Source of the DNA: Terriglobia bacterium
GTDB taxonomy: Bacteria; Acidobacteriota; Terriglobia; JAJPHL01; JAPKYU01
Direction of reading: 5' to 3'
Length of the DNA stretch: 25,410 nt
Assembly (NCBI GenBank): GCA_047514915.1
Contig: JAKZXP010000324.1
Location: 1 to 25,410 of the forward strand
Below, in pieces: positions 724 to 20,971 of this stretch. How positions within the stretch are numbered: the stretch's first letter is position 1; every line of letters begins with the position of its first letter. Position numbers and translations under genes: made by a program. The notes beneath the pieces were generated by a model, which was not told where the DNA came from, ran no database searches, and worked only from the letters and a program-made list of their open reading frames with translations.

Positions 724-3429
724 TCACTCCCTGGTAATGAACTCATCCAGATTCAGCAGCACGCTGCTGAGACCCACCCAGGCAGCGGCTTCGGCAGGCT
801 CCACCCCGTCCACCCCCTGAGCGGGGAATACCTTCTCTATGGACTGAGGATCGCGCTCGAGAACTTCCTTCCGCTGCTGGTAATACTGGATGAGGGGATC
901 TTTCTCCGCCGGACGGGGCTTGCGGGCGAGACACAGCCGGAAGGCATACTCAATCCGGTCACTTAGACTTCCGGGTTTCTCTCGTAGCACCCGGGCAGCC
1001 AGGCCCTGCGCCGCCTCGAAAAAGACCGGGTCGTTCAGCAAGTTTAAAGCCTGCAAGGGGGTGGTGGAGCGCTCCCGCCGGCTACAGGAACTCAGCGAAT
1101 CCGGCGCGTCAAAGGTCGTCATTTGCGGATAGGGCACCATCCGTTGGAAGAAGGTATAGAGGCCCCGGCGATAGCGGTCCGCTCCCTGGCTCTCGTTCCA
1201 GAAGATCCACTCGTTCATGCCAAAGCCGAGTTCCAGGACACTGGCAGGTAGCGGCGGGCGCACGCTCTTGCCCCCGATGGCCGGGTTCAACAGGCCACTG
1301 GCCGCCAGCGTCACGTCCCGGACCAGCTCCGCCGACAAGCGAAGCCGCTGTTGACGCGCCAGTAACTGGTTGGAGGGATCGCGCTCTTCCAGCTCCGGGC
1401 GGATCTTCGACGACTGCCTGTAGGTGGCCGAGGTCACCAACAGCTTGTGAACCTTCTTCACGTTCCAGCCGTTGTCCATGAACCCCACCGCTAGCCAATC
1501 CAGCAGCTTCCGATGCGCAGACGGTTTGCCCCGGGTGCCAAAGTCCTCGGAGGTTTCCACCAGGCCCCGGCCAAACAACTCCTGCCACATCCGGTTCACC
1601 GTCACCCGCGCCGTCAGCGGGTTCTCCGTCGATACCAGCCATCGCGCCAGGCTGAGGCGGTTGGCGTGACCATTGGGGGAACGCAGGGGCGGTAGGAACG
1701 CCGGCGTATTGGGTTGAACCTCTATGCCCGGACGATCCCAAACGCCCCGAATGAGTAAATGCGTCTTAGGAGGATTAGGGTTCTCGTTCAGGGTCAGCGC
1801 TTCGCTCAGCGCCGGATATTCCTCCTTTAGATACTCCAGCTTTTTCCGCAGCTCTTTAAACTTTTTTTTCTCTTTTGGTCCAAAGTCAGGTGGAGGCCAC
1901 TTGACCAAGTGATCTACGAGCAGGTCCTGCACCTTCTGGGAGCGTTGAGCGGGGGGAATCCGGATGAGGTCTTGCGCGCCGTCGGTCCCGTGGTCGGGGT
2001 CAACAGCTAGGTAGTGCCATTCGACTTGCCACGGGAGACTGGCAGACTCTAGATTGTCGCCGGTTTCCAGCATCTTCTTCTCCCACTCTGGATAGAGTTT
2101 CGGCACACCGTAGTCGGCCAATAGCTCCCGTCTCTTCTTGTCATACTCGGGCTTCCGCAGAAGGTAGGGTCCCAACTCCCCGGGCAAAGGGGCTTCAATG
2201 TTGACTTCCTGGCCGGTATCAAAGAAGGCGTACAGTTGGTAATAGTCTTTCTGGGTAACGGGATCGAACTTATGGTCGTGACACTGCGCACAACCCACCG
2301 TCAGGCCCAGCCACACAGTGCCCAGAGTATTGGTGCGATCCAGCACCTGCTCGTTGCGCCGCTGTTCCAAAGGCATGCCGCCTTCGCGGTTGGTCAGGGT
2401 CTGACGCAGAAATCCGGTCGCGACCTTCTGTTCCACCGTGGCGTTGGGCAGCAGGTTACCCGCCAGTTGCTCAATGGTGAACTGATCAAAGGGCATATTG
2501 CGGTTCAGCGCGTCGATCACCCAATGACGCCAGCGCCAGGCATGGGATCGGGCCCTATCGTTTTCGTAACCGTCGCTCTCGCCATAGTGGGCCAGATCGA
2601 GCCAATGGCGGGCCCATTTCTCCCCGTAATGGGGCGAGGCTAGCAGCCGGTCCACCAAACGCTCATAAGCGTCAGGCTGGTTGTCGGCCAGAAATTCATC
2701 GATTTCGCGGGGGGTAGGCGGCAGGCCACTCAGGTCCAGACTCACCCGCCGGATCAGCGTAGTGCGGTCAGCTTCCGGCGAAGGTTCAATCCCTTCCACC
2801 TCCAGCTTAGCCAGCACAAAGGCATCGATGGAGTTTCTTATCCAAGTTCGATTCCGGGCCCGATTCCGGACCTGAGGCACGGCAGCCCGTTGCGGCGGTA
2901 TGAAGGCCCAATGGGTCGTCTGGGGTTTCTCGCTCTGAGCCACTTCTGGACTGGGGGCCGCCTGCTGCTCAGGCCACTCGGCTCCTTGATCAATCCATGC
3001 CCGCAGGAGCCCCACTTGCTCGGGGGTGAGCTTTTCGCCCACCAGCGGCATCACCAAACCTTCCTTGTCTTTGTCTTTCTTCACCCCCGCTACCATATGG
3101 ATCAGCTTACTCTCGGCACTGTTCCCCAACAGGATGACGGCGCCTGAGTATCCACCCGCCAGGGCAGCCTGTCGACTGTCCAGCCGCAACCCTCCCATCT
3201 GCTTCTCTGGCCCGTGGCAGGACTCACACCTCTCTTTGAATAGGGGACCGACATCGCGCCCAAAATCCACCTGGCTCTTGGCCGGCGGCGGCAGCGCCCC
3301 CTCATCGGTCTCGCCGGCCGGCTGCGAGCCTGCCCATGCTGAGACGGCCACCAGGCAGCAAACCAAACCCCAGATTCGAAGCCAGGTTCGAAGCCAGATT
3401 TGAAGCCAGATTTGAGGATTGTTACGCAT
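724..3429 (-). CDS. PSD1 and planctomycete cytochrome C domain-containing protein (PSCyt1 + DUF1549 + DUF1553)
   Basis: ORF 724..3546, trimmed to the ATG at 3429 (GAGGT RBS, followed by a signal-peptide-like segment ending VSAWA). CxxCH at RCESCHG and GCAQCHDHK; DUF1549 motifs (IDAFVLAKL, YGEKWARHWLDLA, FDQFTIEQLAG); DUF1553 motifs (PLTARVTVNRMWQELFGRGLV, STTPLQALNLLN, LLNLDEF). Confidence 0.9.
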   Translation of the reverse strand: MRNNPQIWLQIWLRTWLRIWGLVCCLVAVSAWAGSQPAGETDEGALPPPAKSQVDFGRDVGPLFKERCESCHGPEKQMGGLRLDSRQAALAGGYSGAVILLGNSAESKLIHMVAGVKKDKDKEGLVMPLVGEKLTPEQVGLLRAWIDQGAEWPEQQAAPSPEVAQSEKPQTTHWAFIPPQRAAVPQVRNRARNRTWIRNSIDAFVLAKLEVEGIEPSPEADRTTLIRRVSLDLSGLPPTPREIDEFLADNQPDAYERLVDRLLASPHYGEKWARHWLDLAHYGESDGYENDRARSHAWRWRHWVIDALNRNMPFDQFTIEQLAGNLLPNATVEQKVATGFLRQTLTNREGGMPLEQRRNEQVLDRTNTLGTVWLGLTVGCAQCHDHKFDPVTQKDYYQLYAFFDTGQEVNIEAPLPGELGPYLLRKPEYDKKRRELLADYGVPKLYPEWEKKMLETGDNLESASLPWQVEWHYLAVDPDHGTDGAQDLIRIPPAQRSQKVQDLLVDHLVKWPPPDFGPKEKKKFKELRKKLEYLKEEYPALSEALTLNENPNPPKTHLLIRGVWDRPGIEVQPNTPAFLPPLRSPNGHANRLSLARWLVSTENPLTARVTVNRMWQELFGRGLVETSEDFGTRGKPSAHRKLLDWLAVGFMDNGWNVKKVHKLLVTSATYRQSSKIRPELEERDPSNQLLARQQRLRLSAELVRDVTLAASGLLNPAIGGKSVRPPLPASVLELGFGMNEWIFWNESQGADRYRRGLYTFFQRMVPYPQMTTFDAPDSLSSCSRRERSTTPLQALNLLNDPVFFEAAQGLAARVLREKPGSLSDRIEYAFRLCLARKPRPAEKDPLIQYYQQRKEVLERDPQSIEKVFPAQGVDGVEPAEAAAWVGLSSVLLNLDEFITRE
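2849..2872. repeat. 12-bp tandem duplication x2 (in-frame, RNRA/RNRT)
   Basis: cgattccgggcc / cgattccggacc. Confidence 0.7.
3370..3417. repeat. 12-bp tandem repeat x4 (in-frame, QIWL/QIWL/RTWL/RIWG in the signal region)
   Basis: ccagattcgaag / ccaggttcgaag / ccagatttgaag / ccagatttgagg. Confidence 0.85.
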
Positions 3430-3524
3430 GGACCTCAACCTGAGAGACTCGTGTACTGCCTGCTCACACACTCCTCCGCTAGTGCTATTGTACATTTCCG
3501 TCCTCGGGGGTTCAAGCATCCCTA

Positions 3525-3550
3525 GGGGATCAAACCTGGGGATCAACCCT
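3525..3550. repeat. 13-bp tandem duplication x2 (intergenic)
   Basis: ggggatcaaacct / ggggatcaaccct. Confidence 0.75.
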
Positions 3551-3833
3551 GGCGGACAACGCGGGCATCAGCCCGGCTTTCCCCCTGGACGACTTCTGAG
3601 CAGCTAGGGCGCACTGCTGACAGCCACTGGCCTGTGGGTATGGCTCCGAACGAGTCGAGCCCCCGGTACCGGCGCGGCGGGTATCTGGTGTCCCGGGGCA
3701 AGCAGCGCGGAACCGTTGCCTTTTGCGGAGTCTTCAGCTATCTTTGATGCGCGCCGCGGCAAGGGCCACGGCAAGATAAAGATGTGCTTGCGTCATCTGC
3801 GCGGGAATTCCAGACAGAGAAGGAACCTAGTTC

Positions 3834-4529
3834 ATGAACGTGATTGCCAATACCTACCTTGATGCCATTGACCAGCAGGTTGCCACGCGCAGCCTTTTGC
3901 TACATCCCTTCTACCAGAGCTGGACCCAGGGGAAGCTCAGTCGCGATGCTCTCGGCGACTATGCCGAGCAGTATTACCATCACGTTGCGGCCTTCCCCAC
4001 CTACCTATCCGCCCTGCACTCCCACACGGAGGACGCCGTCGTCCGACGGCACATCCTGGCCAATCTGATGGACGAAGAGGCTGGCACCCCGAACCACCCG
4101 GAGCTGTGGCTTCGCTTTGCCGAAGGCGTGGGCCTGAATCGGGAACAAGTGCAGCAGGCGAAACTGTGGGACGAGACCAAAAGCCTGATTCATACCTTTC
4201 GCAGAATCTGCCGTGACCGCAGCCCGGCCGATGGTGTGGCGGCTCTTTATGCGTATGAGAGCCAAATTCCCGCTGTGGCAGAAACCAAGATTGACGGATT
4301 GAGGAAATTCTACAGTTTCCGGGACGAGCGCGGCCTGGCTTACTTTCGCGTCCATGTGGAGGCGGATCGCGAGCACGCTGCGGTCGAACGCGGGGTGCTG
4401 GAGTCCTACCTGAACGAAACTACAGCGACCTCGGCCACCGAATCGGTAGGCGAGGTGCTTGACGCGCTGTGGGCGTTGCTGTCAGCAGTCTGCCGGCGCC
4501 ACGGCATCGCCTGTCCGACTGCGTCCTGA
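3834..4529 (+). CDS. CADD (CT610)-like heme-oxygenase-like dimetal oxidase, putative p-aminobenzoate synthase (TenA/PqqC superfamily)
   Basis: 231 aa, collinear with my recollection of Chlamydia CT610: HPFY27, Y43, Y47, NLMDE81...NH88, Y141-E142-SQIP, K152, Y170, H174, D178, H181. AAGGAA upstream. Confidence 0.85.
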   Translation: MNVIANTYLDAIDQQVATRSLLLHPFYQSWTQGKLSRDALGDYAEQYYHHVAAFPTYLSALHSHTEDAVVRRHILANLMDEEAGTPNHPELWLRFAEGVGLNREQVQQAKLWDETKSLIHTFRRICRDRSPADGVAALYAYESQIPAVAETKIDGLRKFYSFRDERGLAYFRVHVEADREHAAVERGVLESYLNETTATSATESVGEVLDALWALLSAVCRRHGIACPTAS

Positions 4530-4706
4530 CCCGCAGACCTGAACCCCTGGTCTGGCCCCTGCTTGGCTATGACTTTCTTTCCCGCGTGGTGCGTCCGTAC
4601 GGCGAGAATGGGCGGCGAGAATGGTAAGCTGGTATGGGAAGACCTTTGATGGAGAGGGTTGTACCTTTGAGTTTGGCTTCTTGTTTTCTCCTGGCGAGGT
4701 GAAGCC

Positions 4707-5579
4707 ATGGACCCCAAGCCCGAGGCCGCAAGCAAGATTTCTGCCCCGCTGATTCTCGATCGCAAGCTGCGTGGGAAAAAGATCACCTGCCTGACCGCGT
4801 ATGACTATCCCACAGCCCGGTTGGTGGACGAGGCGGGGATCGACCTGATTCTTGTGGGAGATTCCCTGGGCCAGGTGGTGCTGGGCTACGAATCCACCAT
4901 TCCGGTGACGGCGGAGGAAATGCTCCACCACCTGCGGGCGGCGCGCCGAGGGACGCAGCGCGCCCTATTGGTCGTTGATCTCCCCTACGGCTCCTACCAC
5001 CCGAGTGAAGAAGAGGGCCTGCGGACCGCCATTCGCTTTTTCAAGGAAGGAGGCGCCGAGGCCGTGAAAATCGAAGGGGGCAAGAAGCGGATGGGCCTCA
5101 TTCGCCGTCTGGTCGAGGCCGAAATTCCTGTGATGGGCCACATTGGCTTAACCCCCCAATCGGTTCGCGCCTTCGGCGGTTATCGTGTGCAAGGCAAGAC
5201 CACCGAATCGGCCAACGACGTGCTGGCCGACGCCCAAGCTGTGGAGGACGCCGGCGCATTTTCCATCGTACTGGAAGGTATTCCGAGGGAACTCGCGGCC
5301 ATCATCACCCGACGGCTGCGCATTCCCACGATCGGCATCGGCGCCGGGCCCGAGTGCGACGGCCAAGTCCTGGTGATTCACGACCTTCTGGGCTTGAGTT
5401 TTCAGCCACAAGCAAAGTTTGTGCGGGCTTACGCCGATCTCACACAGACGGCGCGGGACGCGTTGGTGCGATTCCGCAACGACGTCCTGGTGGGCCGCTA
5501 CCCGAGCGACCGAGAGTCATACCACTGGCCAGCGGGCTTGCGCAAACAGTTCGAGAAAGTGGACGTAAATAAAATATAG
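4707..5579 (+). CDS. panB: 3-methyl-2-oxobutanoate hydroxymethyltransferase
   Basis: LTAYDYPTARLVDEAGIDLILVGDSLG, DLPYGSY, AVKIEGG, GHIGLTPQS, PTIGIGAG, GQVLVIHDLLG; GAGGTG RBS. Confidence 0.97.
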   Translation: MDPKPEAASKISAPLILDRKLRGKKITCLTAYDYPTARLVDEAGIDLILVGDSLGQVVLGYESTIPVTAEEMLHHLRAARRGTQRALLVVDLPYGSYHPSEEEGLRTAIRFFKEGGAEAVKIEGGKKRMGLIRRLVEAEIPVMGHIGLTPQSVRAFGGYRVQGKTTESANDVLADAQAVEDAGAFSIVLEGIPRELAAIITRRLRIPTIGIGAGPECDGQVLVIHDLLGLSFQPQAKFVRAYADLTQTARDALVRFRNDVLVGRYPSDRESYHWPAGLRKQFEKVDVNKI

Positions 5580-5690
5580 GTTCCGCAAGGCGTTCAACCC
5601 GGCCTTACCGCAGCTTCCCGCTCCAAGCCGCTTGAGGCGGACCTTGGTTAGCCGGTCAGCTCCCCACACAGTTGCCTGAGGCGTAGGGCG

Positions 5691-6611
5691 ATGCGTCTTT
5701 TCACTTCCATCACGGAAATGCAGGAGTTCGTCGGCCAGACTCGGGGCGCTGGCAAGTCGCTGGCGCTCGTTCCCACTATGGGGGCGCTGCACGAAGGCCA
5801 CTTCAGCCTGGTGCGCGAGGCCAAGCGGCACTGCGACGCGGTGGTGGTCTCGATGTTCGTGAACCCCACACAGTTCGGACCCAGCGAGGACTTCACCCGC
5901 TATCCGCACAATCTGGAAGAAGACCTGGAACTCCTCCGTCCCTACAACGTTGACGCGACTTTCGCCCCCAGCACGGCGGAAATGTACCCGGAAGGATTCC
6001 AGACCTTGGTGGAACCGGGCGCCCTCGCCGCTCCTCTTGAAGGCGCGTCTCGTCCCGGTCATTTTCGAGGCGTTGTCACCGTGGTCCTGAAACTGTTCCG
6101 CATCGTGAGTCCGGACGTCACCTGCTTCGGCCAGAAAGATTTTCAGCAGGCACTGGTAATCCGCCATATGGTGAGAGATTTAAACCTGGGCGTTCGTTTG
6201 ATCATCTGCCCCATCGTCCGGGACCCTGACGGGCTGGCGAAAAGCTCGCGCCATGCCTACATGAGTCCTGAAGACCGCCAGACGGCGCTTGTACTCAACA
6301 GCAGCCTCCGTCGGGCCAAGGAACTCGTCGAGGCGGGACAAACCGAGGCACAGAGTCTGCTGGAAGAAATGCGGAAGGTCTTCGCCGGAGAACCGCGGGC
6401 CCGCCTTGATTATCTTGCCATCGTCGATCCAGTCCGGTTGCAGCCTGTCGAGCGCGTCACGCCCGGCTGCGTGGCGCTAGGAGCAGTATGGGTTGGACCG
6501 GCGCGATTGATCGACAACCTGATTTTCGGCCCGTCCGGCGCCAGTGAGGAAATGCTTCTTGAACTAGCGCTAAGCCGACCTGAAGTAGCTGAGCGCGCCA
6601 CGGATTCTTAG
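5691..6611 (+). CDS. panC: Pantoate--beta-alanine ligase
   Basis: VPTMGALHEGH (HIGH-like), FVNPTQFGPSEDF, RPGHFRGV, FGQKDFQQ, PIVRDPDGLAKSSR, RLIDN. Confidence 0.96.
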   Translation: MRLFTSITEMQEFVGQTRGAGKSLALVPTMGALHEGHFSLVREAKRHCDAVVVSMFVNPTQFGPSEDFTRYPHNLEEDLELLRPYNVDATFAPSTAEMYPEGFQTLVEPGALAAPLEGASRPGHFRGVVTVVLKLFRIVSPDVTCFGQKDFQQALVIRHMVRDLNLGVRLIICPIVRDPDGLAKSSRHAYMSPEDRQTALVLNSSLRRAKELVEAGQTEAQSLLEEMRKVFAGEPRARLDYLAIVDPVRLQPVERVTPGCVALGAVWVGPARLIDNLIFGPSGASEEMLLELALSRPEVAERATDS

Positions 6612-10295: not shown

Positions 10296-13200
10296 CTAGG
10301 AGGGCAGAGAGATGCCTACACCCGTCCCGGCTGCAGTGGCTCGCGTGGGAGCTAGGCACAAGGTGCCGGAAAAGGCGCAATGAGAGCAATGTGCTGCTAC
10401 CTCCGGCGGGAAATGGGCCTCCCGCTGCGCGGCGAAAAGCTCCCCCACCAACCGGCGCGCTTCCTCGAGCGCTTCAGGCGTCAGTTCTACGCGATGCGCT
10501 ACCCCGGGCGCCAGGAAAAACAGGACCGCTTCGCGAGGCAAGTCGCCGAAGGCGGCTTCCACCAGCAGAGCGTAGAGGAGCATTTGGACCCGGTAGTGGG
10601 CCGCCTCGATTTCCACCTGGTCGGCAGAGATGTCGTTCGTCTTGTAGTCCAGGAGCAGGTCGGGGCGCCCGTTGGCGAAGGTGAGCAGGTCCAGCGTGCC
10701 CCGCAGGAAACCGCCCGGTTCCTGGGGCCCCGGTTTCTGAGGCCTGGGTTTCTGAGGCCTCGGTTCCTGAGAAACGATCCCAGCCGCCATCACCGGCAAC
10801 TCGCGCCGGACATCACCCGCCGCCATGGTGCGCTGCCCGTATGCGCTTTGCCGGAAACGCTGTGCCAGGCGCTCAGCTTCGGCCCGCAGCGACGAAGGCA
10901 GAGGGGCCAGCGCGCCCGAACCGAGGGCCAGCACACGGTGGACCGCCCGCCCAACTTCCGTACGCGGAAACTCGTCGTCCATGCGCTCCGCAGCTTCATC
11001 GCGTGCCTCCGCGCCTGGCGCTGGATCGGGAAGACCGCCTCTGGCAGCACTCTCGTATCCTAGCCCGTATCCCGGCCCGTATCCCAGATAGCGGCTCAAG
11101 TAATAGCGGCGCGGGCAGCGGTGGAATTCTACGACATCGGTGACGGCGGCGAGAAAATCGCTGCGCTCGGCTTGCGGCGGCGCGGCGAGCGCCTTCTTGA
11201 CCAGTCGGCGGGCGTCGGCTTCCGCTTCCCGATCCAGTGGTATGTCCAGCGGGCTGCCGGCAGCGAGAGCCATGCGGTAGCGCTCCGCAATGGTCAGCTC
11301 TTGTTGAGATGCTGCTCCAAGTTCTTCGTCAGTAGCCAGCAGTGCCACGGAGAACCCCTCGGGCTTGCCGTCCACAGGAAGTGTGTGCCATTGGCTATCC
11401 ACTTCAACGCGATCCTTAGCAATCCCGTAACTGTCGCAAATCTGTTTCAGGGCATGTCCCAGCTGGAAGCCCTTTCGCGTCTTGTTCAAGCAGCCGCTCA
11501 AGATCAGGTGTTCCTGGGCGCGGGTCACGGCAACGTAGAAAACCCGATTTCTTTCCGCCTGCTCGCGGCGTTCCAACTCCTTCTCGATCCTCTCCAGGCC
11601 AGGCGATTTCACAGTCTCGGCTCCCTGGTCAAGCTTCACGCCCAGACCGAGTCCTGGCAAGAACTCCAGTGCGCTGCTCCGCGGGGGCGGTCGTCGGGTC
11701 AAATCTGGCAGTACCACCAGGGGGAATTCCAGCCCCTTGGCAGCGTGCATGGTCATCAGGCGAACGGCATTCTCGGCAGCCGAATCCAGTTGCGCTTCCC
11801 CTTCGCGAACGCCTTCGACATGGAAGCGGTCCACTGCCTCTGAGAATTCTTGGAGCGAACCGAAACCGGCCTTTTCCAGCGCCTCCGCCACCGCAGAAAG
11901 TTTCTTCAGGTTGGCCACCTTGCGGCGCCCATTGGGTTCGAGCAACAGCGTGGTGTCGTAGCTGGTGGCTTGGACAATGTTGCGCACCAGTTCGGCCAGG
12001 GGGCGCCAGGGGCCCTCGCCGCGCAACCGCTCCAGCAGGTTTCGAAACTCGCGCAGGCGCTCGGCATCTTCGGCCGGCAGGTTGGCGAGGGCCGGCAGGT
12101 TGGCGAGGGCGGGCAGGTTGGCGAGGGCGGGCAGGTTGGTGAGCGAATCGGTCTCCTCCAAGATGTCAGCAAGAACGATGTCAGCCAGAACCTGCCCCTC
12201 CCGCGCGTGGGCGTGCTCGGCAAGCAGATAGAGCGCATCGTCACTCAACCCAAACATAGGCGAGCGCAGGGTGGCCGCCAGAGCAATTTCATGGCGGGAA
12301 TTGTCAAGCACCCGCAGGAAACTCACCACATCGCGCACTTCGCGGGCTTCGTAGAAGCCGCGGCCCGTTTCGGAGAAATAGCGGATTCCCGCATCTTCCA
12401 GGGCACGCTCGTAGGTCTTGATGTCGGTAGCGCTGCGAAACAGCATCGCCACATCACCGTAGCCTAGTGGCCGGCCATAGTCGTCGCGTTTCCGGTTGGT
12501 GATGCGCAGTGACTCGGAATCGATCAACTGGCGAATGCGCCGCGCCAGGTGCCGGGCCTCGAGGGGCTGGATGTCGGGCTTCTTGCCGCGTTCGACGCCC
12601 ACCAGCAGGATTTCCACCGAGGGCTGCTGCTTTGGCGCAAACGGGGAGCCTACCGCGAGCGTCACAAAGGGCGTGCTGGCGCTGCGAAACCTTTCCTCGA
12701 AATGGCGGTTTACGGCATGAATGATCTCGGGACGGCTGCGGAAATCATCTCGCAGGTCCACCTGGCCTTTGAATCCCCTCGCCTCCTTCCAGGCCGCTTC
12801 GAACCCAGCCGGATCGGCGTTGCGGAAGCCATAGATGGACTGGGCCGGGTCGCCGACCACGAACAGCCGGCAGTGGAGAGCCACGGACTGGATGATCTCG
12901 CTCTGTACCGGGCTGGTGTCCTGATACTCATCCACCAGAATTTCCTGAAAGCGCCTGCTAACCCGCCCGGCCACATCGGGCCAGGCGCCCAGCATGCGAC
13001 GCGTCGACTGTTCCAGATCTTCGAAATCCAGGGCGGAAAGACGCCGCTTGCGCTGGTTGTAGGCGCGGTGCAGTTCGCCTAACAAATCGGCCACCCTCTC
13101 GCGCTGGTGGGAGGCGCGATGCTCCGCCTCAGTGTCCTCCTCGGTCAGCGGGAAATCCGAAGAAAGCAAGCTGGCCTTGTCCTGCGGGTCGCCCCCGTGC

Positions 13201-13706
13201 CGGCGGATCGTGTCATAGACGTGCAAGACCAGACGGTCGTACTTGTCTTTCTTGAAGTGGCGGACAAATTCCAGAAATTGTTCTGGCCTGCTCCGGCGGC
13301 ACTCCTCCAAAACGCTGTCGAGTGTGGCCTGCTTCAGGACTGCCGAGCGGATCTCGTCCAGCACCTGAAAGCGGGGATCCACACCAGCCTCAATGGCGTG
13401 TTCCCGGAGGAGCCGCGCGCAGAAGCCGTGGATGGTGGAGATGTAGGCCCGCTCCAGGCGCCGGCGCTCCTCCTCCAGGCCCAGCCGTTCTAACAGTTCG
13501 GCGAGGCGGCCCTTCACCTCAGCAGCAGCGTTTTCCGTAAAGGTGATGGCGAGCGTGCGGGCCAAGTCCAACCGGCCGTCGAGCACTCTGTGGGCGATTC
13601 GTCCCACCAGCACGCGCGTCTTGCCTGAGCCCGGCCCGGCCTGCACGCAGAGACGCCAGGCGTCGCTGGTGATGGCAGCGAGCTGCGACCCGGTCAGCGA
13701 GTCCAT
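10296..13706 (-). CDS. addA: AddA-like UvrD/SF1 helicase with C-terminal PD-(D/E)XK nuclease
   Basis: AGPGSGKT, ITFTENAA, STIHGFC, VDEYQDT, VGDPAQSIYGFR, DDFRS, TMHAAKGLEF, RVFYVAVTRA, then GTLDLL...LLDYKTN. Start set at MDSLTGSQ (13706), which overlaps the addB 3' end by 13 nt; the alternative ATG is at 13736. Confidence 0.88.
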   Translation of the reverse strand: MDSLTGSQLAAITSDAWRLCVQAGPGSGKTRVLVGRIAHRVLDGRLDLARTLAITFTENAAAEVKGRLAELLERLGLEEERRRLERAYISTIHGFCARLLREHAIEAGVDPRFQVLDEIRSAVLKQATLDSVLEECRRSRPEQFLEFVRHFKKDKYDRLVLHVYDTIRRHGGDPQDKASLLSSDFPLTEEDTEAEHRASHQRERVADLLGELHRAYNQRKRRLSALDFEDLEQSTRRMLGAWPDVAGRVSRRFQEILVDEYQDTSPVQSEIIQSVALHCRLFVVGDPAQSIYGFRNADPAGFEAAWKEARGFKGQVDLRDDFRSRPEIIHAVNRHFEERFRSASTPFVTLAVGSPFAPKQQPSVEILLVGVERGKKPDIQPLEARHLARRIRQLIDSESLRITNRKRDDYGRPLGYGDVAMLFRSATDIKTYERALEDAGIRYFSETGRGFYEAREVRDVVSFLRVLDNSRHEIALAATLRSPMFGLSDDALYLLAEHAHAREGQVLADIVLADILEETDSLTNLPALANLPALANLPALANLPAEDAERLREFRNLLERLRGEGPWRPLAELVRNIVQATSYDTTLLLEPNGRRKVANLKKLSAVAEALEKAGFGSLQEFSEAVDRFHVEGVREGEAQLDSAAENAVRLMTMHAAKGLEFPLVVLPDLTRRPPPRSSALEFLPGLGLGVKLDQGAETVKSPGLERIEKELERREQAERNRVFYVAVTRAQEHLILSGCLNKTRKGFQLGHALKQICDSYGIAKDRVEVDSQWHTLPVDGKPEGFSVALLATDEELGAASQQELTIAERYRMALAAGSPLDIPLDREAEADARRLVKKALAAPPQAERSDFLAAVTDVVEFHRCPRRYYLSRYLGYGPGYGLGYESAARGGLPDPAPGAEARDEAAERMDDEFPRTEVGRAVHRVLALGSGALAPLPSSLRAEAERLAQRFRQSAYGQRTMAAGDVRRELPVMAAGIVSQEPRPQKPRPQKPGPQEPGGFLRGTLDLLTFANGRPDLLLDYKTNDISADQVEIEAAHYRVQMLLYALLVEAAFGDLPREAVLFFLAPGVAHRVELTPEALEEARRLVGELFAAQREAHFPPEVAAHCSHCAFSGTLCLAPTRATAAGTGVGISLPS
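10715..10774. repeat. 15-bp tandem repeat x4 (in-frame, SQEPRPQKPRPQKPGPQEPG)
   Basis: ccggttcctggggcc / ccggtttctgaggcc / tgggtttctgaggcc / tcggttcctgagaaa. Confidence 0.85.
11055..11087. repeat. 12-bp tandem repeat x~3 (in-frame, GYGPGYGLGY)
   Basis: gtatcctagccc / gtatcccggccc / gtatcccag. Confidence 0.75.
12076..12140. repeat. 18-bp tandem repeat x3.5 (in-frame, NLPALA repeats)
   Basis: ggcaggttggcgagggcc / ggcaggttggcgagggcg / ggcaggttggcgagggcg / ggcaggttggt. Confidence 0.92.
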
Positions 13707-16700
13707 GCCCGCGCGCGTTGTCCCGGAAACTCCCATTGCTTTACCCGGCAGACGTCGAAAAAGGCGCAGTTCTTACAGCGCTCGGGAAACTTCGGAAAAA
13801 CGGCGATCTCTCCATCGCGGATTCTCTCCGCGTGTTGCTTCATCCATTGGCGGCCTTGCTCCATCATTTCCCGGAACTGTGGCGGGTCCAGGCAAATGGC
13901 TTTGGCCGGAGGGGGCTGCTGGAAGATCTGGTCCAGGAGGGCGGAATCGTAGATGCCACGCCGGGAGAGAGTCTCGGTTTTCAGCGGGTAGAGTTCCGCG
14001 CCGGCGGGCACCAGGCCGAATCGCTCCTGAAGTGCCAGCAGGTAAACGGGGAATTGGAGCTCCAACCCTTCCTGGATCTGGTCCCAGCTTTCTTTCTTGA
14101 AAGCCTTTGCGTTGTACTTGAAATCTACGACAAGGCCCAGCTTTTTGTCCCCGGCAGGGACTACCTCCACCCGATCCAGCCGCCCGAGGACGCGAATGAT
14201 CGTGTGGTCTGCGAGCGTCACTTCCAGTGCCGGCGCGCCGTCCGCGTAGCCGAATTTCAGCTCAATGTACTCCGGGCGTATCGCGGTGCGGTACCTGTCG
14301 CCGTGCTGCTGCTCGAACGCGGCGAAGCGCTCGAGGCACCGGCGCAGCTCCTCGCGCTCCTTGGCAGCAAGGTGACTGGGGGGGATGTCCCTGGTCTTCT
14401 TGCGGAAACACTCCTCTAACACTTCGTCGATGGGCCGGCTGCGGCCACCCCGTTCCCAAGCCTCGATGGTGGCGTGGGCGATCTTGCCGGCCAGCTGAGG
14501 GTCAATTTCCTTTGGAACGGCGGGGCCCTGAAGCTTGAGCGACTCCTGGGCGAAGTACTTGAAGGCGCACTCGGCAAAGGTACGGAAGCCAGAGGCGCTG
14601 AACAGGGTAGCGCGCTCGCGTAGCCGCGTCCGCACCGCTTCCAGCTGCAATCTGCCGGGTCTGGGGGCTAGGGCGGAGGCGGCGCGGCGGGTGGCTCCGA
14701 GCGGGCGCAACTCTTCATACAAAGCAAGAGCGCGGCTCATTGCTTCAGTCCGGGCTTCAGTCCGGGCTTCAGGCCGGGCTTCAGGCCGGGTTTCGGGCCG
14801 GGCTTCGGGCCGGGACGCTCGCGCTCCCAGTTCCAGGTGGGTCAGGGCCAACAAGTCGTCCGTGCCGGTGGCCAGCTCGGCCGGGCAGGCGATTGCCGAA
14901 CGGTGCCACTGTAGGTTGCGGTACGCCGGAGATTCGAGCAACGGCCTCAACCCGCGCAGAAGAGACGAGCGAAGCTGTGGAGTTCCGTCGGCATCCGACA
15001 GCGGGTAAGTGAAATACAGGCGGTCTCGCGGCCGGGTGGCAGCGACGTAGAACAGCAGGCGCTCTTCCAGGCGCCGGTGGGCGGTGGTGGGTAGAGCAAG
15101 CCCACCGGTCTTCTCCAGCGCCTTCCGGTCGTCGTCATCCAGAAAGAGCGGATCACGAATCGGCGCCGGGAACTCGTTCTCCACCAGCCCGACGATGAAC
15201 ACCGCGCCCAGTTCCCACTGGCGGGCTTCAAAAGGGTTCATCAGGGTCACGGCGTCCTGGCGGCGGTCGCGGACCGAGAACTGGTCCCTTGCCAGCAGTA
15301 ACAACAGCAGCTCGCGGAATTCGGGAAAGCTCATCGGGCCGGCATGTTCCGCCTGAGCGGCGACCGAGATTTCGCCCAGCAGCGACTCTATCCGCCGAAA
15401 CGCAACGGCCTCGGCCCTCAATTCCAACGCACGCTCCGGGCGCAGCCGGTCGGGAATTTCCCCCAGGAGTGTGAACTCGCGCCAGAGACGCAACGTCCAG
15501 GCAGCCAGCTCGCTGGCATCATCAAGCCTGGCCAGCTCCGATGTAAACGCCGCCAGCCTCTCCAGAATATCGGCCAGCCGGGTTCCCTGGGTGACGCAGT
15601 TGTCCCAACGGCCCTCGCGGACTTCGGCTAGCCGCGCAATGGCGCGGTACTCAAATTTTTCCACCAGCTTTCGGCTGCGCAGAGGGCTGTAAGGTGATTT
15701 CAGCCAATGAAATACCGATTGCGGGCGGCTGCCGGGCTGAAACAAATCCAGGCAGAGTCGTAGGTGGCGCCCGGCGGCCGTGTCGGCCGGAGAGACAGGA
15801 ACAAAGGCCCGCAGCGGAATCCCCAGGTGACGGAATACGCCGCGTAACAGGGGTAAGTATTCGCCGGGGCGCCGGGCAATAATGCCGATTTCGCGGTAGC
15901 GGAAGCCGCTGCGTCCCAGGCGCAGAATCTCACGCCCGATGAGCTCGGCCTCATTCCGGCGGTCTGCAGCTGCCCAAAGCGAAAGCGCGCCTTCCTGCGC
16001 CCACAGCGGCGCCGGGGCCTCAGCTTGACCCTCGCGCAGCCCGAGTTCGACCGCAGCCAGCGATCCGGCCCGCGGTCGGTGGTTGGCGTCGATCCACAGC
16101 TCGCGAAAGCCAAGCGATTTCAGCCAGGCGCGGGAACGCTCCGCCTGGTAAAAGAGATCGCGTTTCTGCGGGTCCAGCGTCAGCGTTACGACGGCCACGG
16201 GCGCATGGGGCAACAAGGCCATCAACAGGGCCCGCTGCTCTGCGGTGAAGTCGGCAAATCCATCTAACAGGAGGAGTCTGAGGGGCAGGGCGCCCCCGGC
16301 AAGACTTTCCAAAGCAGGGGAGAGGCGCTGGGTCGCATCAACGCCGGCCTGGCGCAGAGCGGCAAGGTAGGCCCGAAAAAGTTGCTGAAAGGCATGATGG
16401 CGCGCTGAGGGTGCAGCCTTGCGCAATACAGCTTCCAGTGTGTCTGGCTCCACTCCGGCGCGACGCGCCTCTTCCAGCGCATCTCCCAGCGCTGTACGAA
16501 AGCCAGGGAAATCCCGCACCGCATCCAAGTAAGGCAGCGGCAGCTCCCGAAGCAGGCGGCGGAGCAGCAGCTCCCGGCGCGCGGCGCTCAACTCTGCGGG
16601 TGATCCGCTGTCGCTTCCCCCCGCCAGCAGTGAATCTCCCGGTGCACCACAACGGCTTTCTGAAAACAGGCGCTCCAGCAGGTCGTGAAAGGTGCAGACC

Positions 16701-16939
16701 GCTGCGTCCGAAAAGCCTCGAAGGCCTCCTTCGCGCAGCACCAAATTGCGGGTGTGATCGCGGTAGCTGGCGGTGGGCACCAGCAGCAGCGTTTCGGCCG
16801 CGCCCCCGGCCTGCATCGCTTCGACAAATCTTTCGCGAAGCCGGTGGCTTTTTCCGACGCCAGCGGGACCTAGCAGCAGTTGGCGGTCGGTTCCCTCCCC
16901 TCGGTCGGCGCCCGACAAACAGTTCCCTCCATTCGTCAC
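13694..16939 (-). CDS. addB: AddB-like inactive-helicase/nuclease subunit with Fe-S-staple PD-(D/E)XK domain
   Basis: N-terminal Walker A GPAGVGKS; degenerate helicase motifs (LLLDGFADFT, VFIVGLVENEFP, ERLLFYVAATRP); nuclease ECAFKYF...GRLDRV...VVDFKY...RCKNCAFFDVC; GTG start; directly upstream of addA. Confidence 0.87.
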   Translation of the reverse strand: MTNGGNCLSGADRGEGTDRQLLLGPAGVGKSHRLRERFVEAMQAGGAAETLLLVPTASYRDHTRNLVLREGGLRGFSDAAVCTFHDLLERLFSESRCGAPGDSLLAGGSDSGSPAELSAARRELLLRRLLRELPLPYLDAVRDFPGFRTALGDALEEARRAGVEPDTLEAVLRKAAPSARHHAFQQLFRAYLAALRQAGVDATQRLSPALESLAGGALPLRLLLLDGFADFTAEQRALLMALLPHAPVAVVTLTLDPQKRDLFYQAERSRAWLKSLGFRELWIDANHRPRAGSLAAVELGLREGQAEAPAPLWAQEGALSLWAAADRRNEAELIGREILRLGRSGFRYREIGIIARRPGEYLPLLRGVFRHLGIPLRAFVPVSPADTAAGRHLRLCLDLFQPGSRPQSVFHWLKSPYSPLRSRKLVEKFEYRAIARLAEVREGRWDNCVTQGTRLADILERLAAFTSELARLDDASELAAWTLRLWREFTLLGEIPDRLRPERALELRAEAVAFRRIESLLGEISVAAQAEHAGPMSFPEFRELLLLLLARDQFSVRDRRQDAVTLMNPFEARQWELGAVFIVGLVENEFPAPIRDPLFLDDDDRKALEKTGGLALPTTAHRRLEERLLFYVAATRPRDRLYFTYPLSDADGTPQLRSSLLRGLRPLLESPAYRNLQWHRSAIACPAELATGTDDLLALTHLELGARASRPEARPETRPEARPEARTEARTEAMSRALALYEELRPLGATRRAASALAPRPGRLQLEAVRTRLRERATLFSASGFRTFAECAFKYFAQESLKLQGPAVPKEIDPQLAGKIAHATIEAWERGGRSRPIDEVLEECFRKKTRDIPPSHLAAKEREELRRCLERFAAFEQQHGDRYRTAIRPEYIELKFGYADGAPALEVTLADHTIIRVLGRLDRVEVVPAGDKKLGLVVDFKYNAKAFKKESWDQIQEGLELQFPVYLLALQERFGLVPAGAELYPLKTETLSRRGIYDSALLDQIFQQPPPAKAICLDPPQFREMMEQGRQWMKQHAERIRDGEIAVFPKFPERCKNCAFFDVCRVKQWEFPGQRARAWTR
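14742..14813. repeat. 12-bp tandem repeat x6 (in-frame, RPEA/RPET/RTEA)
   Basis: gcttcagtccgg x2, gcttcaggccgg x2, gtttcgggccgg, gcttcgggccgg. Confidence 0.92.
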
Positions 16940-19264: not shown

Positions 19265-20971
19265 ATGTCCCAACGTCCGTTTATTGTCGCGCTCGTCGCC
19301 CTGGCGGTGCTTCTTGTTACGACCGCGCGCACCACGCCACCACCAGCAAACTCCGGCCTCGTCGATCTTACGCTTCTGGTGGCGGCAGACTTCCCGGGCA
19401 CCTGGCCTAAGAACGATTGGCCACTTTTCCAGATGTCCCATTACCTTCGTATTGGCCCCAAAAGCCCCTACAACAGCGACGTTTTGCTCCTCGAGGGGAA
19501 TGTCGGCACGCAACTCGACACGCCGCCGCACTCGATTCCCATGCCTGGTTCCGGCCTCCCCAACGCCGGGCCGGCTGGTCTCCTGTTCGCGGAAAGCGTC
19601 CCACCCTGGCAGTTTGTCGGAGAGGCCTGTGTGATCAACGTTGCCCACCTGCGGGACCGCGCAGCCAAGGGGCACAGCCCCCTGATCCAAACCAGCGACA
19701 TCCAGGCATGGGAGAAAAAGCACCGGCCGCTGGGACCAGGCGACGTGGTGATCTTCGCCAGCGGATATAGCGATGCCTACTACCTTCCCCTGCCCGAGGG
19801 CAGGCGGTTTATCGCCGATCCGCTGGAAGGGCGTACGCCCGCCTGGCCTGACCCCACTCCCGAGGCCATGGAATATGTGGCCAAGCGGGGCGTGATGGCG
19901 GCGGCCACCGACAGCCCGAGCATGGGTCCGATTCCCGATTATGCCGACCCAACGCATACGGCCGGGCTGAAGTATGGAATGATCTGGACCGAAGGGGGAA
20001 CTGGGTTCGGACAACTGCCGCCGACAGGAGCCTTGTACGGCGTGCTCTCTCCGAAATACGTGGGCGCCATGGCCACCGAGGCGCGCGCCTTGGCGGTCAT
20101 CGGCTCGCCCCTGGCGGGGCAGTTGATTGAGTCAGCCCGCAAGAAGAGGGTCGTGGATCTTTCGGTGATGTTTGCCGACAACCTGCCCCTGTGGTGGCCC
20201 GGAACCGGATTCGGCAATCATCGCCAGCGCCTCCTGACGGTGCGGCATGCCTATGATCCGAAAACGGAGGCCTCCCACATGGTGCACATCATGGACGCCC
20301 ACACCGGCACTCATCTTGTTCCGCCGGTCTACTCTTTACCGCCCCCCGGCTTCTCCAACAGCAGTTACTCGCCCGAGGTGCAACGCTGGCTGGCCGAATA
20401 CGAAAAACAGTTTGGTCCTCGCGGCACAAGTGAGGTGACCGTGGAAAAGGTGCCTGTCTCGCAGACCAGCGGGTGGCTTCGGGTCATTGATGTGCGAGGA
20501 CTGGCCGGCTCCACGGACCGCAGCAAGTGGCCTGCGGCGCCCGAAATCCAGTCCGCCCATGTGGCAGAGTATGAGAAAAAGAATGGGGCGCTGCAACCGG
20601 GCGAGATCGTGGTCTTTCAGACCGGTCACAGCCAGCGTTGCGTACCGTCGGAAAAGGACCCGAAGGCCACTGGCTGCCTTGACGATCCCATCAACGGCCG
20701 TAGCGAGGGCTGGCCAGCGCCTGGGCCGGAAGTCATCGTCTATTTGGCCGGCAAGGGGATCCGGGCTGTTGGCATTGATGCGCCCACGCTCGGAGGCGTG
20801 GAGCCCCGTCGCGCGCTGATGACCTACTGGGCACTAGGCAGCAAGGGCATGGCTGGCATTGAGTACCTGACCAATCTTGAACAGCTTCCTGGGAAAGCGT
20901 ATCTGCTATTTGCCGCGATCAAGGTTCGCGACGCTCACGGCTCGCCCGGCCGGGCCCTCGCCCTCTACTAG
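19265..20971 (+). CDS. Secreted tandem cyclase-family (kynurenine formamidase-like) protein, two domains
   Basis: Signal peptide. Domain 1: VDLTLL...NVGTQLDTPPH...GDVVIFASG...ATDSPS..H..TEG. Domain 2: VDLSV...HTGTHLVPPVY...GEIVVFQTG...GIDAPT...IEYLTNL...GSPGRALA. AAGGAG RBS. Confidence 0.85.
   Translation: MSQRPFIVALVALAVLLVTTARTTPPPANSGLVDLTLLVAADFPGTWPKNDWPLFQMSHYLRIGPKSPYNSDVLLLEGNVGTQLDTPPHSIPMPGSGLPNAGPAGLLFAESVPPWQFVGEACVINVAHLRDRAAKGHSPLIQTSDIQAWEKKHRPLGPGDVVIFASGYSDAYYLPLPEGRRFIADPLEGRTPAWPDPTPEAMEYVAKRGVMAAATDSPSMGPIPDYADPTHTAGLKYGMIWTEGGTGFGQLPPTGALYGVLSPKYVGAMATEARALAVIGSPLAGQLIESARKKRVVDLSVMFADNLPLWWPGTGFGNHRQRLLTVRHAYDPKTEASHMVHIMDAHTGTHLVPPVYSLPPPGFSNSSYSPEVQRWLAEYEKQFGPRGTSEVTVEKVPVSQTSGWLRVIDVRGLAGSTDRSKWPAAPEIQSAHVAEYEKKNGALQPGEIVVFQTGHSQRCVPSEKDPKATGCLDDPINGRSEGWPAPGPEVIVYLAGKGIRAVGIDAPTLGGVEPRRALMTYWALGSKGMAGIEYLTNLEQLPGKAYLLFAAIKVRDAHGSPGRALALY

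Follow-up and report, generated by a model that had tools for sequence, protein, structure and literature searches.

What is a gene that resembles those for self-sacrificing synthases of para-aminobenzoate (pABA, 4-aminobenzoate) doing directly upstream of the pantothenate genes panB and panC? The question is raised by a stretch of 25,410 nucleotides, here called the window, which is contig JAKZXP010000324.1 (C324) of assembly GCA_047514915.1. This assembly is a metagenome-assembled genome (MAG) of 1.9 Mb in 342 contigs, 62% complete, and comes from an uncultured soil bacterium of the Terriglobia (Acidobacteriota). An original prediction, made from the letters of the window, had read the first gene as a CADD-type pABA synthase, and had taken its position to mark either a folate-precursor/pantothenate cofactor cluster or a CADD paralogue repurposed to supply a different precursor. 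We consider it likely that the gene encodes a bona fide pABA synthase whose neighbourhood is incidental or weakly linked. The genes in question are the following.

3834 to 4529, plus strand: predicted CADD/PabS-type self-sacrificing 4-aminobenzoate synthase, a heme-oxygenase-like dimetal oxygenase of 231 amino acids (aa), assigned from TIGR04305, the 1rcw fold and its residues.
4707 to 5579, plus strand: panB, 3-methyl-2-oxobutanoate (ketopantoate) hydroxymethyltransferase, 290 aa (PF02548, 364 bits; TIGR00222, 325.4 against a cut-off of 207.55; NF001452, 366.7, above cut-off).
5691 to 6611, plus strand: panC, pantoate--beta-alanine ligase, 306 aa (PF02569, 337 bits; TIGR00018, 309.1 against a cut-off of 212.75).

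By family model and predicted structure, the open reading frame (ORF) at 3834-4529 encodes an ordinary single-copy member of the known CADD/PabS family. Its product scores 281.9 bits on the curated NCBIfam model for CADD (TIGR04305, cut-off 200), and its closest solved relatives, found by phmmer against the PDB, are CT610 of Chlamydia (1rcw, E 6.7e-50) together with 8va9 and 9pj4 (the latter at E 6.9e-49), both of which are named '4-aminobenzoate synthase'. For all three genes, CADD, panB and panC, E-values between 1e-50 and 1e-110 rule out a family assignment by chance. An AlphaFold 2 (AF2) model of the protein (predicted local distance difference test, pLDDT, 93.9; predicted template modelling score, pTM, 0.90) was compared by Foldseek with 1rcw and 8va9. 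It matches them with a template modelling (TM) score of 0.94-0.95 and a root-mean-square deviation (rmsd) of 1.4-1.5 Å over 212 columns at 40% identity (for 1rcw, TM 0.95 and 1.5 Å). The family is a large one: over 6,900 homologues are present in public data at E ≤ 1e-20. Each genome of the genus to which the window belongs carries one copy.

The functional residues point the same way. Hand counting on the translation finds the metal ligands at their expected numbers (E81, H88, E142, H174, D178 and H181), as well as the sacrificial pair Y27 and K152 and the aromatic relay positions Y43, Y47, W92, Y141 and Y170. The ORF and CT610 share identical numbering because the phmmer alignment to 1rcw is in register from residue 6, which pairs with residue 6, and contains a single one-residue gap late in the protein. 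None of the 13 functional positions varies across the 73 homologues compared, which come from Acidobacteriota, Verrucomicrobiota and other groups. The hand count and the in-register alignment thus bear out the original prediction of a 231-aa ORF with all of its named residues at CT610 numbering.

The gene content of the genus provides a second line of evidence. This case rests on three same-genus genomes, G001 to G003, which are 96-97% complete and in which folP, folK and folC all score above cut-offs. Each of the three holds one CADD and one TrpE/PabB-type match, which is TrpE, and none has a PabB above cut-off. The original prediction had left it to be checked whether pab genes are missing, and in these genomes PabB is: the sole TrpE/PabB-type gene is TrpE. 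The MAG of the window likewise has a single gene of this type, a TrpE (TIGR00564, 582 bits, above cut-off) within an aroE-trpE-trpG-trpD cluster. A pabC search by PF01063 in the window genome returns one class-IV aminotransferase, which is of no consequence because PabB is absent.

The same pattern extends beyond the genus. Among 385 high-quality Acidobacteriota genomes, CADD is found at E ≤ 1e-30 in 29; one of these, G063, is unpublished and enters the tallies only, with no claim leaning on it. Neither a PabB above cut-off nor a second TrpE/PabB-type match occurs in any of 34 CADD-carrying Acidobacteriota, and PabB above cut-off is present in 6 of 35 class relatives that have no family-level CADD match. 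Related genomes are not independent of one another, and these exclusivity counts are given with no statistic. The resulting CADD-or-PabB pattern fits a replacement of PabB by CADD, and supports the view that many soil bacteria simply use the CADD route in place of PabB. Taken together, the family model, the predicted fold, the catalytic residues and a genus with folP, folK and folC and without PabB favour the CADD-type self-sacrificing synthase that had been proposed, and on this sequence and model evidence we regard the pABA-synthase reading as well supported. It would add the Terriglobia to the hosts of a non-canonical, enzyme-consuming route to pABA.

How such an enzyme would work is suggested by its characterised relatives. 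Experiments on CtCADD (CT610 of Chlamydia trachomatis) and NePabS (NE1434 of Nitrosomonas europaea) established Tyr27 as scaffold donor, Lys152 as amine donor and the role of the aromatic relay (PMC9522330, PMC11965152), and from these findings we infer catalysis and metal preference in the window protein. By analogy with both, its dimetal centre would activate O2, and a radical would then pass over the aromatics Y170/Y141, Y47/Y43 and W92 to reach Y27. The side chain of Y27 would be cleaved off and oxidised to the carboxylate, with the amino group supplied by K152, and one pABA would be released per polypeptide. The released pABA would feed dihydropteroate synthase (FolP) in a genus that holds folP, folK and folC without PabB. 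NePabS comes to prefer Mn/Fe over Fe/Fe once both of its metal-site-adjacent Phe residues are replaced by Tyr, the residue that CADD has at these positions (Y141/Y170) (PMC11965152). The metal centre of the window protein is predicted to be Mn/Fe because its metal-selecting positions, Y141 and Y170, are both Tyr. Further, W92 can tentatively be equated with Trp99 of NePabS, since a constant offset of 7 separates the two numberings (K152/K159, Y141/F148, Y170/F177).

What, then, does the panBC neighbourhood mean? The panB start at 4707 is the most upstream start in frame and lies, on the same strand, 177 bp past the end of CADD at 4529, so the coordinates confirm the orientation and distance given in the original prediction. 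A TonB-dependent receptor gene on the minus strand converges on panC. This arrangement, CADD-panB-panC followed by the opposite-strand TonB receptor, is kept in G001, G002 and G003, whose CADD proteins are 96%, 93% and 82% identical to that of the window, and CADD-panB adjacency is therefore seen in all four of the closely related genomes of the genus.

Beyond the genus, we surveyed the best 80 of roughly 590 or more CADD loci in a species-level genome collection, of which 69 were comparable, the window included. PanB at position +1 with PanC at +2 occurs only in the window and in two loci, those of G001 and G002; CADD-panB adjacency is found in none of the 66 other compared loci, which span at least five phyla. 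CADD and PanB coordinates were also compared in the 34 acidobacterial CADD carriers. Two of the 31 carriers outside the genus gave no PanB match, and in the 29 that hold both genes these are never adjacent, lying at least 18 kb apart or on separate contigs. Family-level relatives say little about whether CADD was inserted upstream of panBC: G005 and G006 have a PanB of 43-47% identity without an adjoining panC or any other shared flank, and a PanB query on G004, G007 and G008 gave no match. The original prediction had held that adjacency seen in no relative would count against it; outside the genus none of the genomes surveyed shows it, and within the genus G001 to G003 all do. Among these close relatives the adjacency represents a single evolutionary event, and it is probably synteny inherited within one genus that carries no special meaning. 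The panBC neighbourhood is little informative and implies no new pathway or mechanism.

The neighbours of CADD elsewhere are of other kinds. In the Chthoniobacterales/Udaeobacter group (Verrucomicrobiota) they are TreS-Mak, an extracytoplasmic function (ECF) sigma factor, HtrA, RecG, RecJ or FabI. In other Acidobacteriota they include two-component systems, a GFO oxidoreductase, Ada, Memo, MacB, PNGase, Nramp and PurD, and G014 has the gene order trpE-rhodanese-CADD. In three loci of Acidobacteriaceae/Silvibacterium (L080, L096 and L108), an Nramp gene for an MntH-like Mn/Fe transporter and purD are no more than three genes away from CADD, about 700-5400 bases downstream, an arrangement that could reflect a tie to the Mn/Fe cofactor or chance.

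Genes for folate synthesis did not turn up in these surroundings either, though lying beside them, as ct610 does in Chlamydia, is a matter of context and does not define the family. No fol gene lies in the window, and none was found near CADD in G014, G032 or G026 or among the annotated neighbour clusters of the 69 loci, rarer clusters having been left unannotated. In G001, folP (485 kb), folK (622 kb) and CADD (1,225 kb) are scattered along contig C10, and folC is on contig C2; with its fol genes dispersed in this way, the genus offers CADD no fol cluster in which to lie. To describe the gene as placed with panB-panC instead of fol genes, as the original prediction did, is consequently misleading. 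A separate linkage of folate and pantothenate genes, distinct from that of the window, does exist in G014, where folK, a 225-aa ORF and panB follow one another in the same orientation (L036, G014:C34:87603-90989, at about 1-1900).

Two further features bear on whether CADD and panB are transcribed together.

3716 to 3744, plus strand: candidate CADD promoter, with TTGCCT at 3716-3721, a 17-nt spacer and TATCTT at 3739-3744, matching 8 of 12 sigma-70 consensus positions.
4530 to 4706, plus strand: the CADD-panB spacer of 177 bp, with a variable proximal part and a conserved block at about 4657-4687 in a four-genome alignment.

The consensus scan, with its threshold of 9 of 12 sigma-70 positions, returned nothing convincing as a strong plus-strand promoter, and the CADD candidate falls under that threshold. 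Each of the four genus members retains the 3716-3744 block, with indels in the neighbouring sequence. Across these genomes the spacer has lengths of 155, 177, 177 and 220 bp and carries indels immediately behind the CADD stop codon. The block at about 4657-4687, directly ahead of panB, does not vary among them and may be a panB promoter or operator. From these alignments we infer the transcription units: CADD and panB probably have separate promoters. A riboswitch or other regulatory RNA around CADD-panB was considered and rejected on Rfam scans and folding. A scan of the whole window at gathering thresholds gave 0 matches, and a permissive scan of 3400-5800 gave chance-level matches only. Fold stability compared with shuffled sequences indicated no unusual structure in either the 5′ leader (z 0.26) or the spacer (z 0.65).

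Several observations weigh against a pABA synthase in an incidental neighbourhood. For the enzyme itself, folP was not found in the MAG of the window, which at its level of completeness is weakly informative. More than 20 high-quality Terriglobia relatives (among G004-G040) have neither a PabB above cut-off nor CADD, with a single TrpE-type gene each, and a missing PabB alone is therefore no proof that CADD is the source of pABA. For the neighbourhood, the genus keeps the adjacency even where CADD identity has fallen to 82%, a persistence that would fit weak selection for linkage. Further, the stretch from CADD to panB contains no convincing terminator, its one weak terminator-like hairpin (5 pairs, 4553-4569) being within shuffle expectation, and transcripts could read through from CADD into panB. 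As for the Terriglobia that lack both PabB and CADD, they may be auxotrophs for pABA or folate, or may use a further route.

The rival that survives best holds that CADD, panB and panC form a functional, co-transcribed cofactor module, in which the output of the single-turnover synthase is tied to the initial, folate-dependent step of pantothenate synthesis. PanB consumes 5,10-methylene-tetrahydrofolate (methylene-THF), an established piece of biochemistry. The three genes share a strand and keep their order in all four genomes of the genus, no strong terminator interrupts the 177-bp spacer, and the folK-X-panB arrangement of G014 is a case of fol and pan genes lying together in Terriglobia. 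Against this stand the single evolutionary event behind the adjacency, its absence from the 66 other CADD loci in at least five phyla, and its absence from all 29 (of 31) other CADD-carrying Acidobacteriota that hold both genes, the nearest pair being 18 kb apart. The spacer also differs in length between the genomes (155 to 220 bp) and has indels right behind the CADD stop, the conserved block sits where panB's own promoter would be expected, and the Rfam scans revealed no shared regulatory RNA. We consider such a module unlikely, and the folate-precursor/pantothenate cluster of the original prediction finds no support in an adjacency confined to one genus. We also doubt that, within this genus, panBC shares transcription or regulation with a single-turnover pABA synthase. 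If it did, a stoichiometric supply of pABA, and hence of folate, would be tied to PanB as a consumer of methylene-THF, and the result would be a small module of folate and pantothenate supply with a single origin. On the reading that we prefer, any tie between CADD and PanB is the indirect one that runs through the use that PanB makes of 5,10-methylene-THF.

The ORF could also be a repurposed paralogue that makes a different product for pantothenate or another pathway. Its neighbourhood is indeed a non-folate one, and the superfamily of heme-oxygenase-like dimetal oxygenases (HDO) is chemically diverse (PMC9522330). Yet CADD is single-copy in each genome, its sacrificial residues, six metal ligands and relay aromatics are all invariant in the 73 homologues, and its TIGR04305 score exceeds the curated cut-off. 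The genus, moreover, has folP and no other known source of pABA. Pantothenate synthesis, for its part, involves no aromatic or tyrosine-derived precursor. We therefore regard this second proposal of the original prediction as highly improbable, and the same holds for any reading other than a pABA synthase with an incidental neighbourhood or a co-regulated module.

That the ORF is really an enzyme of the PqqC or TenA family, as its PF03070 (TENA/THI-4/PQQC) match of 105 bits and the automatic Joint Genome Institute (JGI) name of several homologues might suggest, is scarcely credible and is ruled out by model scores and structure: the PqqC model TIGR02111 gives 70.6 bits against a cut-off of 240 and the BesC model 55.3 against 500, PqqC structures match at 17-24% identity and an rmsd of 2.7-5 Å compared with 40% and 1.5 Å for CADD, and the ORF carries the full CADD dimetal ligand set together with the Tyr27/Lys152 pair. 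Across PqqC, BesC, UndA and TenA structures, the Foldseek range is 14-24% identity and 2.5-5 Å. The original prediction had named a phylogenetic placement with PqqC or TenA as one outcome that would overturn it; model scores and structure speak against such an assignment. The window holds no pqqABDE genes. At JGI, many homologues at 62-68% identity have automatically been named 'pyrroloquinoline-quinone synthase'; by the model scores obtained here, this name is incorrect for the CADD clade.

In a quick maximum-likelihood tree, the four CADDs of the genus form a supported clade (98 in the Shimodaira-Hasegawa-like approximate likelihood ratio test, SH-aLRT) among other acidobacterial lineages. 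A Verrucomicrobiota clade is nested further in, and the Terriglobia CADDs of G026 and G032 have very long branches. Nothing in this tree suggests a recent foreign origin of the window CADD. One sequence in the tree comes from a contig titled Candidatus Limnocylindria, Chloroflexota (L072, DATLPS010000032.1). Its CADD nests in the Udaeobacter/Chthoniobacterales clade, and its gene order (ECF sigma, TreS-Mak, CADD, HtrA, RecG, RecJ) is that of the loci of this group; it is probably a mis-binned Verrucomicrobiota contig.

Other genes of the window lie further from the question. Divergent from CADD and upstream of it, at 724-3546 on the minus strand, is a gene for a 940-aa PSCyt1/PSCyt2/PSD1 ('planctomycete cytochrome C') protein; in G001 and G002 (L037/L038), a second paralogue of this kind and a 482-aa gene follow in tandem beyond the first. 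At 10296-16939, also on the minus strand, two large overlapping genes resemble an AddA/AddB-type helicase-nuclease pair, one product having 1146 aa (UvrD helicase and PD-(D/E)XK) and the other 1081 aa (AddB_N and PD-(D/E)XK). A 568-aa protein encoded at 19265-20971 on the plus strand matches the PF04199 'putative cyclase' (kynurenine-formamidase-like) domain in two stretches.

Among known systems, the most distant comparison is with PqqC and other proteins of the HDO/TenA fold, such as BesC and UndA. The window protein shares their seven-helix heme-oxygenase-like fold, but falls far under their family cut-offs, at 14-24% identity. Substrates also differ: PqqC, BesC and UndA act on free small molecules, whereas CADD consumes residues of its own. 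NePabS is closer, being an Fe/Fe 4-aminobenzoate synthase of the same family with the same sacrificial Tyr/Lys pair and, like the window protein, an environmental host. It differs in having Phe at the metal-adjacent positions (F148 and F177), with Fe/Fe preferred, where the window protein has Tyr at both. The chain of PDB entry 9pj4, which names no organism and is probably NePabS judging from its insertion and numbering offset, has an insertion of about 10 residues after helix 3 that is missing from the window protein. The closest counterpart is CtCADD, the self-sacrificing Mn/Fe 4-aminobenzoate synthase of C. trachomatis (PDB 1RCW, 8VA9, 8VAG). Its host is an intracellular pathogen and that of the window a free-living soil acidobacterium; its gene, ct610, lies in a folate gene cluster (PMC9522330), whereas the window gene adjoins panBC. 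Both proteins have 231 aa and the same residue numbers at 40% identity (TM 0.95, rmsd 1.5 Å), with the same six metal ligands and the same Y27, K152, Y43, Y47 and W92. Tyr occupies the metal-selecting positions 141 and 170 of the window protein, for which the Mn/Fe preference of CtCADD is accordingly predicted.

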